Source: Escherichia phage LH2
Length of the DNA stretch: 64,000 nucleotides
Sequence record: OQ378934.1
Direction: 5' to 3' (one strand)
Shown: positions 3,360 through 63,515 of the stretch, one piece after another
Position numbering within the stretch: the stretch's first letter is position 1
Layout: each line of letters starts with the position of its first letter
Made by a program: the position numbers and the translations under genes
Notes under the pieces: model-generated
The model's database searches: none
What the model saw: the letters and a program-made list of their open reading frames with translations, nothing else
Told to the model about the DNA's origin: nothing

Positions 3360-3821
3360 ATGACTATCAACACAGAAGTTTTTATCCGTCGAAATAAGCT
3401 TCGTCGTCACTTTGAGTCGGAGTTTCGTCAAATTAACAATGAGATTCGTGAGGCATCAAAAGCAGCAGGGGTCTCATCGTTTCATCTAAAATATTCTCAG
3501 CATCTTCTTGATCGTGCAATTCAACGGGAGATTGATGAGACATATGTTTTTGAATTATTCCATAAAATAAAAGACCATGTTTTAGAAGTTAATGAATTCC
3601 TGAGTATGCCTCCACGCCCTGATATTGACGAAGATTTTATTGATGGGGTTGAATATCGTCCTGGGCGTTTAGAAATCACAGATGGAAATCTTTGGCTTGG
3701 ATTTACAGTTTGTAAACCTAATGCGAAGTTCAAAGACCCGTCACTTCAGTGCAGGATGGCAATTATCAATAGTCGTCGTTTACCAGGAAAGGCTTCTAAA
3801 GCAGTAATTAAAACTCAATGA
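3360..3821 (+). CDS. regB: Sequence-specific endoribonuclease RegB
   Basis: 153 aa, same length as T4 RegB; MTINTEVFIRRNKLRRHFESEF...; position between denV and tk. Confidence 0.85.
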   Translation: MTINTEVFIRRNKLRRHFESEFRQINNEIREASKAAGVSSFHLKYSQHLLDRAIQREIDETYVFELFHKIKDHVLEVNEFLSMPPRPDIDEDFIDGVEYRPGRLEITDGNLWLGFTVCKPNAKFKDPSLQCRMAIINSRRLPGKASKAVIKTQ

Positions 3822-57324: not shown

Positions 57325-57501
57325 ATGCCTCTTTATGATTATAAATGTCAATCCAAAGACTGCGCAAAAGAATACGAAAAAATCAAGAAAATTTCTGAAA
57401 GGGATACTGATGTATGTCCTGATTGTCATCGGATTGCTATTCGGTTAGTTTCCGCTCCTAAGCATGTGAATGGTGGATTTTACGACTTACTTAAAGGGTG
57501 A
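57325..57501 (+). CDS. FmdB-family-like zinc-ribbon protein (58 aa, below ORF-track cutoff)
   Basis: MPLYDYKC..C...CPDC pattern typical of FmdB-type zinc ribbons. Confidence 0.5.
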   Translation: MPLYDYKCQSKDCAKEYEKIKKISERDTDVCPDCHRIAIRLVSAPKHVNGGFYDLLKG

Positions 57502-57503
57502 TT

Positions 57504-57875
57504 ATGTTTAAAATCGGTAAGAAATATCGTGTTCGCGAAGGTGAAGAAAAGAAATATCTACTTTCTTCTATTTATAGGAATGGTTCTATTAATGCCGTAA
57601 TATCTACAAGTGAATTTATCGTTGAAGATATGAAAGGTAATAATGTTACAATGATTAGTACATCATCTGGAAATGATGGAAAAATTCTTCACAGTTTTCA
57701 GAGTAATGTTCTAATTTATGATGAAGAATTTGACTTCTTCGAAGAAGTTCCTGAAGATTTTGATTTTGGATGCACCATCACTATGAAATCTGGCGACCCT
57801 CTTTCTTTTACAGTTAAAGATGAAAGAAGTCGCTTGAGAATTATTAGTCTCCTTCAAGCCATTAAATTTGAGTGA
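57504..57875 (+). CDS. Hypothetical protein
   Basis: ATG 57504; 123 aa. Confidence 0.5.
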   Translation: MFKIGKKYRVREGEEKKYLLSSIYRNGSINAVISTSEFIVEDMKGNNVTMISTSSGNDGKILHSFQSNVLIYDEEFDFFEEVPEDFDFGCTITMKSGDPLSFTVKDERSRLRIISLLQAIKFE

Positions 57876-57879
57876 AATT

Positions 57880-58140
57880 ATGAAATATGTTAATCGTTCT
57901 ATCGCGGCATTAGTATTAGCAGTATCTTTAGTAGGATGTACTGATGCTGATAACGCAACCAAAGTTTTGTCTTCAAGCGGTTTTACTAATATTGAAATCA
58001 CTGGATACAATTGGTTCGGTTGCTCTGAAAATGATTTCCAGCATACTGGATTTCGTGCTATTGGACCTACTGGGCAGAAAGTAGAAGGAACAGTATGTTC
58101 TGGGCTGTTCTTTAAGGATTCGACTATCCGTTTTAAATAA
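57880..58140 (+). CDS. Lipoprotein
   Basis: MKYVNRSIAALVLAVSLVGC lipobox. Confidence 0.55.
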   Translation: MKYVNRSIAALVLAVSLVGCTDADNATKVLSSSGFTNIEITGYNWFGCSENDFQHTGFRAIGPTGQKVEGTVCSGLFFKDSTIRFK

Positions 58141-58154: not shown

Positions 58155-58209
58155 TTTAGCTTTATGATTACCGGAGTATAATATTCCCGAAACCAAACGA
58201 GGATAAGTG

Positions 58210-59760
58210 ATGATTAAGAATGAAATTAAAATTCTGAGCGATATTGAACATATCAAAAAGCGTAGCGGCATGTACATTGGTTCTTCTGCTAATGAAATGC
58301 ATGAGCGCTTTCTGTTTGGTAAATGGGAAAGTGTTCAGTATGTACCTGGTCTTGTTAAGCTTATTGATGAAATTATCGATAACTCAGTAGATGAAGGTAT
58401 TCGTACTAAGTTTAAATTCGCAAATAAAATTAATGTTACCATTAAAAATAATCAGGTAACAGTTGAAGATAACGGTCGTGGTATTCCACAAGCGATGGTT
58501 AAAACACCTACCGGTGAAGAAATTCCTGGTCCAGTTGCTGCATGGACTATTCCAAAAGCAGGTGGTAACTTTGGTGATGATAAAGAACGCGTCACTGGCG
58601 GTATGAACGGTGTTGGTTCTAGTTTAACTAACATTTTTTCTGTGATGTTTGTCGGCGAAACTGGCGATGGTCAAAATAATATTGTAGTTCGTTGTTCAAA
58701 TGGCATGGAAAATAAATCGTGGGAAACTATTCCTGGAAAATGGAAAGGAACTCGTGTTACTTTCATTCCTGATTTTATGTCATTTGAAACTAATGAGCTA
58801 TCTCAGGTTTATCTTGACATTACATTAGATCGTCTCCAGACACTTGCAGTAGTTTATCCTGATATTCAATTTACCTTTAATGGTAAAAAGGTTCAGGGTA
58901 ATTTTAAGAAATACGCACGCCAATATGATGAGCATGCTATCGTTCAAGAACAAGAAAATTGTTCTATTGCGGTTGGTCGTTCACCGGATGGTTTTCGTCA
59001 ATTAACATACGTCAATAACATTCATACTAAGAATGGTGGCCATCACATTGACTGTGTTATGGATGATATTTGTGAAGACCTTATTCCACAAATCAAACGT
59101 AAATTTAAAATTGACGTAACTAAAGCACGTGTTAAAGAATGTTTGACTATCGTTATGTTTGTTCGTGATATGAAAAACATGCGATTTGATTCTCAAACTA
59201 AAGAGCGTTTGACTTCTCCATTTGGTGAAATTCGTAGTCATATTCAGCTTGATGCTAAAAAGATTTCACGTGCTATTTTAAATAATGAAGCAATTTTAAT
59301 GCCAATTATTGAAGCTGCCTTAGCTCGTAAATTGGCGGCAGAAAAAGCAGCAGAAACTAAAGCAGCTAAAAAGGCCTCTAAAGCTAAGGTTCATAAACAT
59401 ATCAAAGCGAATCTTTGTGGTAAAGATGCTGACACGACTCTTTTCTTGACTGAGGGTGATTCTGCTATCGGATATCTTATTGATGTTCGTGATAAAGAAC
59501 TTCATGGTGGTTATCCATTGCGTGGTAAAGTTCTTAACAGTTGGGGTATGTCATATGCTGATATGCTTAAAAACAAAGAACTGTTTGATATTTGCGCAAT
59601 CACTGGATTAGTTCTTGGTGAAAAGGCATTTGAAGAAAAAGAAGATGGCGAGTGGTTTACTTTCGAACTAAATGGCGATACAATTATCGTAAATGAAAAT
59701 GATGAAGTACAGATTAATGGTAAATGGATAACAGTAGGTGAATTACGAAAAAATCTATAA
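58210..59760 (+). CDS. 39: DNA topoisomerase II large subunit gp39 (GyrB-like ATPase and TOPRIM start)
   Basis: 516 aa from ATG 58210; GHKL ATPase motifs (DNSVDEG, GRGIP, GGMNGVGSS). Confidence 0.9.
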   Translation: MIKNEIKILSDIEHIKKRSGMYIGSSANEMHERFLFGKWESVQYVPGLVKLIDEIIDNSVDEGIRTKFKFANKINVTIKNNQVTVEDNGRGIPQAMVKTPTGEEIPGPVAAWTIPKAGGNFGDDKERVTGGMNGVGSSLTNIFSVMFVGETGDGQNNIVVRCSNGMENKSWETIPGKWKGTRVTFIPDFMSFETNELSQVYLDITLDRLQTLAVVYPDIQFTFNGKKVQGNFKKYARQYDEHAIVQEQENCSIAVGRSPDGFRQLTYVNNIHTKNGGHHIDCVMDDICEDLIPQIKRKFKIDVTKARVKECLTIVMFVRDMKNMRFDSQTKERLTSPFGEIRSHIQLDAKKISRAILNNEAILMPIIEAALARKLAAEKAAETKAAKKASKAKVHKHIKANLCGKDADTTLFLTEGDSAIGYLIDVRDKELHGGYPLRGKVLNSWGMSYADMLKNKELFDICAITGLVLGEKAFEEKEDGEWFTFELNGDTIIVNENDEVQINGKWITVGELRKNL

Positions 59761-60556
59761 TGACTTAATAGTGCGGGGTAAAACCCGCGTTTCTAAATTT
59801 AAGGGTGAAATTCATCATATCCTTCCAAGATCAATGGGAGGTTCTGATGATAAAGAAAATTTGGTGAAACTGACTTTTCGTGAACACTTTTTAGCACATT
59901 TTCTACTATATAAAATTCATCGTAATCGTGAAATGGCATATGCGATGAATAGAATGTTAAACACTGAAAAATATTTACGTTCTAGTAAATTATATGAAAT
60001 TGCTAGAATTTACCATCAAAGAGCAGTATCTGAATGGTCAAAAAACTTTATGAAAGATAAAGTTTTAATGAGAAGTATTAAATCGGGTAAATGCGCCTTA
60101 TTAATTAAAGGATCATTTAACCCAAAGGAATGGTGCGGTGTTAATAAAGGTGTTAAGCTTCCTGGAATTAAAGGCATGACATGCTTTAAAAATGAAAAGG
60201 GCGAAGTTTTTCGTCTTCATGTTAATGATCCACGCATTAAAGCTGAAAAATTAGTTGGTATTGGAAATACTGTTGCTGCTACTGCAAAAGCAGCTGAACT
60301 TGAAAAAGCGAAACCATGGTATAATAAATCAGCGACAAATCCAGAGGCTGTAAAATTAATACCAAATTTATATGAATGGTACGTCACGAAATATGACCCC
60401 GATCATTATAAACGAACAGGAGTTGCTAAATGGAAATCAGTTAATAATATAACTGTGAATTCAAAATTATTCGGCCGAGCATTTAATGAATTTAAACGCG
60501 GTTGGATTCCTGATGAAAAGTTCTATGAGGTGTATAATGAAATTTGTAAAAATTGA
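59738..60556 (+). CDS. mobA: HNH homing endonuclease (MobA-like) inserted between 39 and 60
   Basis: GTG start overlapping the 3' end of 39; HNH motif GEIHHILPRSMGGSDDKENLVKLTFREH; paralog of the 46237 ORF. Confidence 0.75.
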   Translation: MNYEKIYNDLIVRGKTRVSKFKGEIHHILPRSMGGSDDKENLVKLTFREHFLAHFLLYKIHRNREMAYAMNRMLNTEKYLRSSKLYEIARIYHQRAVSEWSKNFMKDKVLMRSIKSGKCALLIKGSFNPKEWCGVNKGVKLPGIKGMTCFKNEKGEVFRLHVNDPRIKAEKLVGIGNTVAATAKAAELEKAKPWYNKSATNPEAVKLIPNLYEWYVTKYDPDHYKRTGVAKWKSVNNITVNSKLFGRAFNEFKRGWIPDEKFYEVYNEICKN

Positions 60557-60674
60557 TTCTTCTAGCGTTGATATGAAAAAATATAAATTGCAGAACAATG
60601 TTCGTCGTTCTATTAAATCCTCTTCAATGAACTATGCGAATGTCGCTATTATGACAGACGCAGATCACGATGGA
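60537..60674 (+). CDS. 60: Topoisomerase II subunit gp60, codons 1-46 (before the bypass)
   Basis: MKFVKIDSSSVDMKKYKLQNNVRRSIKSSSMNYANVAIMTDADHDG ending at take-off GGA 60672-60674. Confidence 0.85.
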
Positions 60675-60724
60675 TAGCCTTCGGGCTATCCATAGAAATA
60701 CCTCATAATTAAGAGATTATTGGA
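60675..60724 (+). other. 60: 50-nt translational bypass (coding gap) of gene 60
   Basis: UAG stop directly after take-off GGA; stem-loop tagc-cttcgg-gcta; landing GGA at 60722-60724; frame resumes at TTA 60725. Confidence 0.85.
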
Positions 60725-61069
60725 TTAGGTTCTATTTATCCTTCTTTGCTCGGATTTTTTAGTAATTGGCCAGAACTGTTTGAACAAGGAAGAATTCGCT
60801 TTGTCAAAACTCCTGTAATCATCGCTCAGGTCGGTAAAAAACAAGAATGGTTTTATACAGTCGCTGAATACGAGAGTGCTAAAGATGCTCTACCTAAACA
60901 TAGCATCCGTTATATTAAGGGACTTGGCTCTTTGGAAAAATCTGAATATCGTGAGATGATTCAAAACCCAGTATATGATGTTGTTAAACTTCCTGAGAAC
61001 TGGAAAGAGCTTTTTGAAATGCTCATGGGAGATAATGCTGACCTTCGTAAAGAATGGATGAGCCAATAG
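60725..61069 (+). CDS. 60: Topoisomerase II subunit gp60, codons 47-160 (after the bypass)
   Basis: LGSIYPSLLGFFSNWPELFEQGRIRFVKTPVII...; combined length 160 aa. Confidence 0.85.
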   Translation, partial: LGSIYPSLLGFFSNWPELFEQGRIRFVKTPVIIAQVGKKQEWFYTVAEYESAKDALPKHSIRYIKGLGSLEKSEYREMIQNPVYDVVKLPENWKELFEMLMGDNADLRKEWMSQ

Positions 61070-61098
61070 TTTACTTTACCACAAGGATGTGGTATAAT
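61069..61098 (+). promoter_or_regulatory. T4-type early promoter (near-identical to 15121-15150)
   Basis: gtttac 61069-61074; tataat 61093-61098. Confidence 0.55.
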
Positions 61099-61123
61099 TA
61101 ATTGGGCAAATGAGGATATTGAA

Positions 61124-61327
61124 ATGAAATCATATAAAGTAAATTTAGAACTATTTGATAAAGCAGTTCATCGAGAATATAGAATCATTCAACGCTTTTT
61201 CGATATGGGAGAAGCCGAAGAGTTTAAAAACCGCTTTAAGGATATTAGAGATAAAATTCAATCCGACACTGCAACTAAAGATGAACTACTAGAAGTTGCT
61301 GAAGTTATTAAACGCAATATGAATTAA
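61124..61327 (+). CDS. Hypothetical protein (rIIA.1 position)
   Basis: 67-aa ORF immediately upstream of rIIA. Confidence 0.5.
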
Positions 61328-61337
61328 TGAGGAAATT

Positions 61338-63515
61338 ATGATTATCACCACTGAAAAAGAAACAATTCTTGGTAATGGTTCTAAATCAAAAGCATTTAGC
61401 ATCACAGCGTCTCCTAAAGTATTTAAAATTCTGTCATCTGATTTGTATACAAACAAGATTCGCGCAGTGGTTCGTGAATTGATTACCAACATGATTGATG
61501 CCCATGCTCTTAATGGAAATCCTGAAAAATTTATCATTCAAGTTCCAGGACGATTAGATCCGCGATTTGTTTGCCGAGATTTTGGTCCGGGTATGAGCGA
61601 TTTTGATATTCAGGGTGATGATAATTCTCCTGGGTTGTATAATTCATACTTTAGTTCATCTAAGGCTGAATCTAATGATTTCATTGGTGGATTTGGTTTA
61701 GGTTCTAAATCTCCGTTTAGTTATACTGATACATTTAGTATTACTTCGTACCATAAAGGCGAAATTCGTGGTTATGTAGCTTACATGGATGGTGATGGTC
61801 CGCAGATTAAACCTACATTCGTAAAAGAAATGGGTCCAAATGATAAAACTGGTATTGAAATCGTAGTTCCAGTTGAAGAAAAAGATTTTAGAAACTTTGC
61901 TTATGAAGTTTCTTATATCATGCGACCGTTCAAAGATTTGGCTATCATTAATGGTCTTGACCGCGAAATTGATTATTTTCCGGATTTTGATGACTATTAC
62001 GGTGTAAATCCAGAAAGATATTGGCCAGATCGTGGTGGATTGTATGCTATCTATGGTGGTATTGTTTATCCTATCGATGGTGTTATTAGAGACCGTAACT
62101 GGTTAAGCATCCGCAATGAAGTGAATTACATTAAGTTTCCAATGGGTTCACTTGATATTGCTCCATCGCGTGAGGCTCTTTCATTAGATGATCGTACTCG
62201 TAAAAATATTATTGAGCGTGTTAAAGAGCTCAGTGAGCAGGCATTTAATGAAGATGTAAAACGATTTAAAGAATCTACATCTCCTCGTCATACATACCGT
62301 GAATTGATGAAGATGGGATATTCTGCTCGAGATTATATGATTAGCAATTCAGTCAAATTTACGACTAAAAATCTGTCATATAAAAAGATGCAGAGCATGT
62401 TTGAACCTGACAGTAAGTTATGCAATGCAGGGGTTGTGTATGAAGTAAATCTTGACCCTCGACTGAAACGCATTAAGCAAAGCCATGAAACTTCAGCCGT
62501 TGCGTCAAGCTATCGTCTGTTTGGTATTAATACGACAAAAATTAATATTGTTATTGATAATATTAAAAATCGTGTTAATATTGTCCGTGGATTAGCACGT
62601 GCATTAGATGATAGTGAATTTAATAACACTTTAAATATTCATCACAATGAGCGTCTTCTGTTTATTAATCCGGAAGTAGAATCGCAGATTGATTTGCTTC
62701 CTGATATTATGGCAATGTTTGAAAGTGATGAAGTTAACATTCATTATTTGTCAGAAATTGAAGCTTTAGTTAAAAGTTATATTCCAAAGGCAGTAAAAAG
62801 TACAGCTCCTCGTCCTAAAACTGCCACTGCGTTTAAGTTTGAAATTAAAGACGGGCGCTGGGAAAAAGAGGAACTGTTTACGCTCACATCAGAAGCAGAT
62901 GAAATTACTGGTTATGTAGCATATATGCATCGTTCTGATATTTTCTCTATGGATGGTACTACATCGCTTTGTAATCCATCTACGAGTATTTTGACCCGTA
63001 TGGCTAATCTTATTGGCATTAATGAATTTTATGTTATTCGTCCACTTTTGCAGAAAAAGGTAAAAGAACTTGGTCAGTGCCAATGTATTTTTGAAACTCT
63101 GCGTGATTTATATGTAGATGCTTTTGATGCTGTAGATTATGATAAGTATGTAGGTTATTCGAGTTCAGCTAAACGATATATTGATAAAATTATCAAGTAT
63201 CCTGAACTAGATTTTATGATGAAGTACTTCAGTGTAGATGAAGTTTCCGAAGAATATACTCGCCTTGGTAATATGGTTAGTTCATTGCAGGGTATATATT
63301 TCAACGGTGGAAAAGATACCATCGGTCATGACATCTGGACAGTAACTAATCTTTTTGAAACACTATCATATAATGCTTCAAAAAACAGTGATAAAATGGT
63401 TGCTGAGTTTACCAAGAAATTCCGTATTGTTTCCGATTTCATCGGTTATCGCAACTCTTTAAGTGATGATGAAGTTTCCCAAATCGCTAAAACTATGAAG
63501 GCCCTTGCGGCCTAA
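61338..63515 (+). CDS. rIIA: Rapid-lysis protein rIIA
   Basis: 725 aa; ATPase-like N-terminal domain; length and position match T4 rIIA. Confidence 0.92.

Follow-up and report, generated by a model that had tools for sequence, protein, structure and literature searches.

A probable T4-type MobA homing element in the split topoisomerase large-subunit gene of Escherichia phage LH2

The topoisomerase locus of Escherichia phage LH2 (sequence record OQ378934.1) was analysed within a 64,000-nucleotide stretch of its DNA, hereafter the window, whose numbering is used throughout. The open reading frame (ORF) table and the sequence itself point to a T4-like phage (Tequatrovirus) in which gene 39, mobA, gene 60, rIIA.1, and rIIA form a block; the features described below lie on the + strand unless stated otherwise. 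The region spanning the junction of genes 39 and 60 is predicted with high confidence to be a clade-1 (T4-type) MobA homing element, a selfish cassette of 1106 nt (59628..60733) lodged in the TOPRIM domain of the gene for the topoisomerase large subunit. The MobA-bypass cassette as such is already known from published work, including the length of the element and its insertion site. In that literature mobA is a free-standing HNH endonuclease gene that has gene 39 as its target and lacks its own promoter; its product nicks a single target strand, and in mixed infections mobA is passed on at high frequency (Edgell et al., 2010). Bonocora et al. (2011, PNAS 108:16351) are reported to have shown that MobA nicks the insert-less gene 39 of T2, that transfer of the cassette from T4 to T2 was observed experimentally, and that the bypass was shown by experiment to belong to the mobA cassette.

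The boundaries of the element were defined by comparison with relatives that lack it. A megablast search of the phage collection with positions 59400-61100 (1701 nt) as the query returned 515 matching records, 41 of which cover at least 80% of the query and carry the insert. About 470 of the 515, all Tequatrovirus, match just 659 of the 1701 nt, in two pieces. The first-pass annotation of this DNA had held that relatives without the insertion possess a single large-subunit gene and had proposed a comparison with uninterrupted gene 39 sequences, and this comparison bore it out: RB7 and pSs-1, which are free of the insert, carry gene 39 as one unsplit coding sequence (CDS) of 1818 nt (605 aa). 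Since a MAFFT alignment of carriers and insert-free genomes misplaced the large gap, anchored, in-register ungapped walks from the two flanks were used instead. In these walks identity to RB7 and pSs-1 is essentially perfect through 59627, is lost at 59628, and is regained at 60734. The element follows nt 1418 of pSs-1 gene 39 and replaces 64 native nt, for a net gain of 1042 nt, which equals the difference between 1701 and 659. Its presence or absence at one precise site among collinear close relatives is as expected for a member of the HNH Mob group. The earlier annotation had placed the mobA ORF correctly, but the inserted DNA extends beyond that ORF and additionally codes for the last 43 aa of gp39 and for codons 1-46 of gene 60. 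For elements of this kind, Manning and Atkins (2022, bioRxiv 10.1101/2022.08.31.505936) give lengths of 1097-1106 nt, insertion at nt 1399-1419 of the Topo2L gene, and deletion of 55-75 nt (64 in HY01), and the values found here (1106 nt, nt 1418, and 64 nt) agree with those of clade 1.

Gene 39 (58210..59760) encodes the N-terminal part of the topoisomerase II large subunit, a protein of 516 aa comprising the ATPase, the transducer, and the first half of TOPRIM. It contains the Pfam domains HATPase_c and DNA_gyraseB and is labelled gene 39 in T4, G50, and F26. The annotated ATG at 58210 yields 516 aa as in T4, and the mechanical ORF start is a GTG at 58207. The TAA stop codon occupies 59758-59760, and the gene is native only to 59627. 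Beyond that point lies an element-encoded C-terminal extension (CTE) of 43 aa (59628..59757; FEEKEDGEWFTFELNGDTIIVNENDEVQINGKWITVGELRKNL) that has no counterpart in fused gp39. Thus, where fused gp39 reads GLVLGEKA, then ENLNYHNIAIMTDADHDG, then LGSIYPS, the gp39 of the window passes from GLVLGEKA directly into FEEKEDGE and ends with RKNL at its stop codon.

The missing part of the subunit is taken up by gene 60. Its ATG lies at 60537, the protein begins MKFVKIDSSS, and the start codon together with a unique N-terminal extension (NTE) of about 30 aa (MKFVKIDSSSVDMKKYKLQNNVRRSIKSSS) spans 60537..60628. This extension matches phrog_19082 (E=3e-27), is identical to T4 at 92 of 92 nt, and corresponds to the nascent peptide that the literature describes as required for bypass. 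It is followed by homR (60629..60674, 46 nt; MNYANVAIMTDADHDG), a diverged, element-borne copy of the replaced target that carries the TOPRIM DxDxD motif and whose last codon is the take-off GGA. Once the 50-nt gap is taken out of the comparison, homR shares 74-78% identity with the native segment of RB7 and pSs-1, and it is 100% identical among carriers. After the bypass gap, the 9 nt that follow the landing codon (60725..60733; TTAGGTTCT) are still of the element type, against YTAGGAAGC in the native sequence, although both encode Leu-Gly-Ser; local alignment of this segment gave chance 9-mers, and an in-register comparison was therefore used. The remainder of gene 60 (60734..61069) is the native C-terminal part of the large subunit, contains Pfam TOPRIM_C and DNA_gyraseB_C, and is 97.6-98.8% identical to insert-free genomes. 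The gp60 of the window accordingly reads from its initial M to KSSS, then MNYANVAIMTDADHDG, the gap, and LGSIYPS.

Residues 1-473 of gp39 followed by residues 47-160 of gp60 are collinear with fused gp39. The split divides TOPRIM itself, with the glutamate (LTEGDSA) kept in gp39 and the DxDxD motif in gp60. The extensions (a 43-aa CTE, a 30-aa unique NTE, and a 16-aa homR) are those of clade 1, for which a CTE of about 43 aa, a 30-aa NTE, a 16-aa homR, the gap, and 9 additional nt have been described (Manning and Atkins, 2022); all of the element figures in that study equal those measured independently in the window. Together with the breaks in identity at 59627/59628 and 60733/60734, the collinearity of the two halves with the fused protein supports the proposal, already made in the first-pass annotation, that an insertion split the large-subunit gene into genes 39 and 60. 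The split enzyme is active in published work, where CTE and NTE together make up a pendant attached to its TOPRIM domain that may help the split subunits to assemble (Xin et al., 2024).

The bypass gap (60675..60724, 50 nt) displays every signal described for clade 1: matched codons, a stop codon, a stem-loop, and a Shine-Dalgarno (SD)-like motif. The take-off codon GGA (60672-60674) is followed directly by UAG (60675-60677), and the landing GGA (60722-60724) is preceded, 6 nt upstream, by an SD-like GAG. Translation would resume at 60725 and end at the stop codon at 61067-61069; read in this spliced form, gene 60 is predicted to give a gp60 of 160 aa that is collinear with fused gp39. The take-off stem-loop (60670-60693) consists of a 10-bp stem closed by a UUCG loop (-17.0 kcal/mol, z=-5.5). 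The gap is missing from insert-free genomes, T4 records label it a bypass region, and ribosomal bypassing has been demonstrated experimentally for T4 (Manning and Atkins, 2022). A scan of 59400-61400 against Rfam returned no bypass family and one match at chance level (TeloSII_ncR30, 24.5 bits against a gathering threshold of 86). The signals are the same as in T4 except for one stem base. Position 60691, in the 3′ arm of the take-off stem, is C here and U in T4; its partner is G60672, with which the take-off GGA begins. The substitution changes a G·U pair to G-C, strengthens the stem from -14.7 to -17.0 kcal/mol, and is shared with G50, F26, and 215Ecol030PP.

The mobA gene (59738..60556) is intact and encodes 272 aa between a GTG start codon and a TGA stop codon (60554-60556). 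As stated in the first-pass annotation, the GTG falls within the last 23 nt of gene 39, which ends at 59760, and the ORF ends 20 nt into gene 60, so that mobA overlaps both neighbors. Its identification there as a MobA-like HNH ORF is likewise upheld. Residues 1-265 match the PHROG family phrog_655, annotated as 'homing endonuclease' (E=2.5e-57), and the motif EIHHILPRSMGGSDDKENLVKLTFREH can be aligned to the HNH domain of PDB 6me0, a group II intron maturase. The catalytic residues EIHH (26-27), N41, and H50 are invariant across the window, T4, and Salmonella phage S16, which places the protein in the HNH group. MobA of S16 is 61% identical and has the same N-terminus (MNY..IY..LI.RGKTRV), and the S16 gene begins with ATG at the equivalent position, overlapping the stop codon of S16 gene 39. 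This supports the GTG as the start of mobA in the window; the same GTG is used by all annotated records, and a GUG start with a 23-bp overlap with gene 39 has been reported (Edgell et al., 2010). The mobA sequence has 100% identity to its vB_Eco_F26 counterpart, 37 records contain it at 99% identity or more, and the protein differs from that of T4 at a single residue (A169 here, T in T4). A cross-match to mobE covers the N-terminal 180 nt of mobA at about 71%.

Comparison with S16 mobA gives pN=0.28 and pS=0.76. As synonymous sites are saturated, a dN/dS ratio is not computable and the result is reported as pN << pS, which indicates that the MobA protein has been under purifying selection. The scan for promoters and terminators found no more sites than in shuffled sequence and none that would account for mobA expression, consistent with a cassette lacking a promoter of its own. 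Given this result, the position of the GTG inside gene 39, and the discussion in Edgell et al. (2010), MobA is probably made at a low level, coupled to translation of gene 39. The hairpin GCGGG-GUAAAA-CCCGC (59773-59789) was considered as a terminator or translational regulator and dropped (z=-1.6 against shuffles, no T-run). It sits 13 nt past the gene 39 stop codon, within the 5′ end of mobA, and is conserved in T4 and G50; a role in limiting MobA translation is possible.

The conservation of the element differs from that of its surroundings. Carriers share 98.3-100% identity over the element but 95.8-97.4% over the adjacent gene 39 and rIIA sequences. At the DNA level the element of the window is 100% identical to that of vB_Eco_F26 and 99.5% identical to those of modern T4 assemblies, whereas over the 25 kb of backbone (39001-64000) the closest records of the phage collection reach about 94-96% identity. 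An element that is more conserved than its flanks and backbone is the pattern expected of one moving between genomes, and the contrast may be taken as an indirect signature of super-Mendelian inheritance. The source of the window also appears to be a Tequatrovirus without a close representative in the phage collection.

Several observations weigh against the interpretation of the region as a homing element with an intact endonuclease. The match of MobA to the Pfam HNH family (PF01844) is marginal, at 20.1 bits with a cut-off of 21.4. Furthermore, the T4 reference (NC_000866.4/AF158101.6) lists a 'defective' mobA together with a separate ORF 60.1, reviews term the gene 'apparently defective' or a pseudogene of laboratory T4, and the mobA of laboratory T4 is called a pseudogene by Manning and Atkins (2022). 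These annotations would suit a dead relic, with mobA reduced to an inactive pseudogene and with purely vertical inheritance of the split genes and the bypass. Such a history is improbable for the window, where the ORF runs uninterrupted through all 272 aa and keeps every HNH residue. Also, the excess conservation of the element and its scatter over different backbones are those of ongoing transfer, and purifying selection on MobA is at odds with an inactive gene.

The T4 defect itself can be traced to 11 extra single bases, mostly G, that break the ORF and separate mobA from 60.1. They occur only in NC_000866.4/AF158101.6 and in X06220.1, an entry from the 1980s, and correspond to positions 59870-60077 of the window and about 3480-3700 of NC_000866.4. 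The defect is present neither in the window nor in any modern T4 assembly, and an intact mobA of 819 nt is found in at least 10 independent T4 assemblies (HM137666, KJ477684-6, MT984581, OL964735/45, OZ209023/57, and OZ035787). Because the extra bases are confined to old entries while these assemblies hold an intact ORF, the T4 'pseudogene' is probably a legacy sequencing artefact. If this is so, then T4's own MobA is intact. The mobA allele of the window is likewise presumed to be active. A joint proposal, that C60691 might alter bypass efficiency and gp60 dosage and that the 'defective mobA' and 60.1 of T4 may be an artefact, is offered tentatively, with the balance tipped slightly against both parts holding at once. 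Should C60691 change the bypass efficiency of roughly 50%, it would be a natural variant affecting the dosage of gp60.

A different history would make the split of genes 39 and 60 ancestral, with precise deletion and fusion having produced the unsplit gene 39 seen in T2, T6, and RB-type phages. The choice between 'gene-fusion or gene-separation' was left open by Xin et al. (2024), and secondary re-fusion has taken place in Aeromonas phages (Manning and Atkins, 2022). However, the re-fused Aeromonas genes retain CTE and NTE scars (Manning and Atkins, 2022), and RB7 and pSs-1 contain none. Fused genomes contain a native 64-nt segment, of which the element holds only a shorter, diverged copy in homR; loss of the element could not bring this segment back, and an ancestral split is contradicted on these grounds. 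The clean boundaries and foreign divergence pattern of the element, the fused state of about 470 of the 515 close relatives, and the experimentally observed transfer of the cassette from T4 to T2 also speak for insertion. An uninterrupted TOPRIM domain is the rule in type IIA topoisomerases, which likewise counts against an ancestral split. Taken together, these points leave an ancestral split with hardly any probability.

The separation of genes 39 and 60 by insertion of the element raises the further question of whether mobA and the gap came in together. Full-length mobA is found in 40 records and the bypass sequence (hop), at 95% identity or more, in 41 records, and these are the same set plus one, with the extra record (MZ375356) being a T4 with a partial deletion of mobA. 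The distant copies in S16-type and Proteus phages bear both a mobA homolog and a gap, and S16 has the same architecture with a gap of its own. Moreover, the diverged tract of element type is unbroken: it starts in mobA, takes in homR and the gap, and ends 9 nt past the gap. The shared record set and the continuous tract support the conclusion that the bypass belongs to the same mobile cassette as mobA, which had been raised as a possibility in the first-pass annotation. Two independent neighboring insertions, with the gap being for example the remnant of a degenerate group I intron, would accord with the roughly 120 nt of coding sequence between mobA and the gap and with metagenomic clades in which the gap is paired with other endonuclease families or with none, but against this joint occurrence and unbroken divergence the idea is extremely unlikely. 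The data suggest that mobA and the gap today move as one unit, for which a separate origin in the deep past is possible.

Published work and the anatomy described above suggest how such a cassette would spread and be tolerated. During a mixed infection, a co-infecting relative with an insert-less gene 39 would be nicked by MobA within that gene, at the conserved coding sequence NIAIMTDADHDG; the published nick site falls in the native counterpart of homR (Manning and Atkins, 2022). Recombination-dependent repair, as described in the literature, would then use the carrier as the template for the entire cassette, and 64 nt of the target would be lost in exchange. One gene would thereby become two. 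The cassette would furnish gp39 with an in-frame tail of 43 aa and a stop codon, and gp60 with a new start codon, a 30-aa leader, and recoded versions (homR) of the deleted codons; with these parts supplied, gp39, gp60, and gp52 could still form an active enzyme. Bonocora et al. (2011, PNAS 108:16351) reportedly found that the homR polymorphisms alone do not stop nicking and that the gap, about 20 nt downstream, does. The 50-nt gap, lying about 20 nt downstream of the nick site, would thus break the MobA recognition site and render the carrier immune to its own nuclease. Ribosomes would avoid the gap by leaving at GGA-46 and re-engaging at the matched GGA that lies 50 nt further on, with the stem-loop, the UAG codon, the leader (nascent) peptide, and the SD-like GAG as helpers in the published model. 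The poor initiation region of mobA, with its GTG inside gene 39, and the lack of a promoter of its own would keep its coupled translation low.

This interpretation has consequences for annotation. Gene 60 is correctly annotated as a joined CDS (60537-60674 and 60725-61069), genes 39 and 60 are two halves of one topoisomerase subunit, and mobA should be listed as an intact homing endonuclease gene, not as a hypothetical protein or a pseudogene. Small antisense ORFs inside mobA (46-56 aa) lack support and were disregarded. Two features were also noted in the neighborhood of the block. Upstream of gene 39, an ORF of 125 aa (57498-57875) lies between 39.2 (57325-57501) and 39.1 (about 57880-58140). 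T4, F26, and G50-type genomes lack this ORF and 419 of 548 matching Tequatrovirus records contain it, making it a common presence/absence polymorphism. Directly 3′ of the gene 60 stop codon and upstream of rIIA.1/rIIA is a near-consensus sigma-70-type promoter (61070-61098; TTTACT, 17 nt, TG-TATAAT; 10 of 12 matches), probably the known early promoter of the rIIA unit.

The cassette offers a textbook example of how an essential gene can be split by a selfish endonuclease that is nevertheless tolerated, and it explains the most extreme programmed ribosomal bypassing known, with the gap serving as the carrier's immunity to its own nuclease. Its closest counterpart is the mobA/gene 60 cassette of T4, which has the same insertion site, length of 1106 nt, 64-nt replacement, 43-aa CTE, and 46 codons of NTE and homR. 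The two also share a 272-aa HNH MobA with a GTG start, overlaps of 23 and 20 nt, the GGA/UAG take-off, the UUCG stem-loop, the 50-nt gap, the GGA landing site, and the 9 extra nt. The window differs from T4 in its backbone (about 95% identical to the nearest records), in the additional ORF between 39.2 and 39.1, and in MobA A169 and C60691. MobE and the other free-standing Mob endonucleases of T4 are likewise HNH nicking enzymes without promoters of their own that spread by recombination repair, and in Aeh1 mobE splits the essential nrdA gene, whose halves can reassemble through the terminal extensions that come with the insertion. However, MobE is normally intergenic, has no translational bypass element, and does not derive its immunity from a recoding insert. 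Intron- and intein-encoded homing endonucleases such as I-TevI-III and I-HmuI resemble MobA in that they cut or nick the empty allele, rely on repair copying, and have a recognition site that is disrupted by the insertion. Unlike those systems, the cassette of the window would restore function without RNA or protein splicing, through two subunits that assemble with one another and through ribosomal bypassing of the 50-nt immunity insert.

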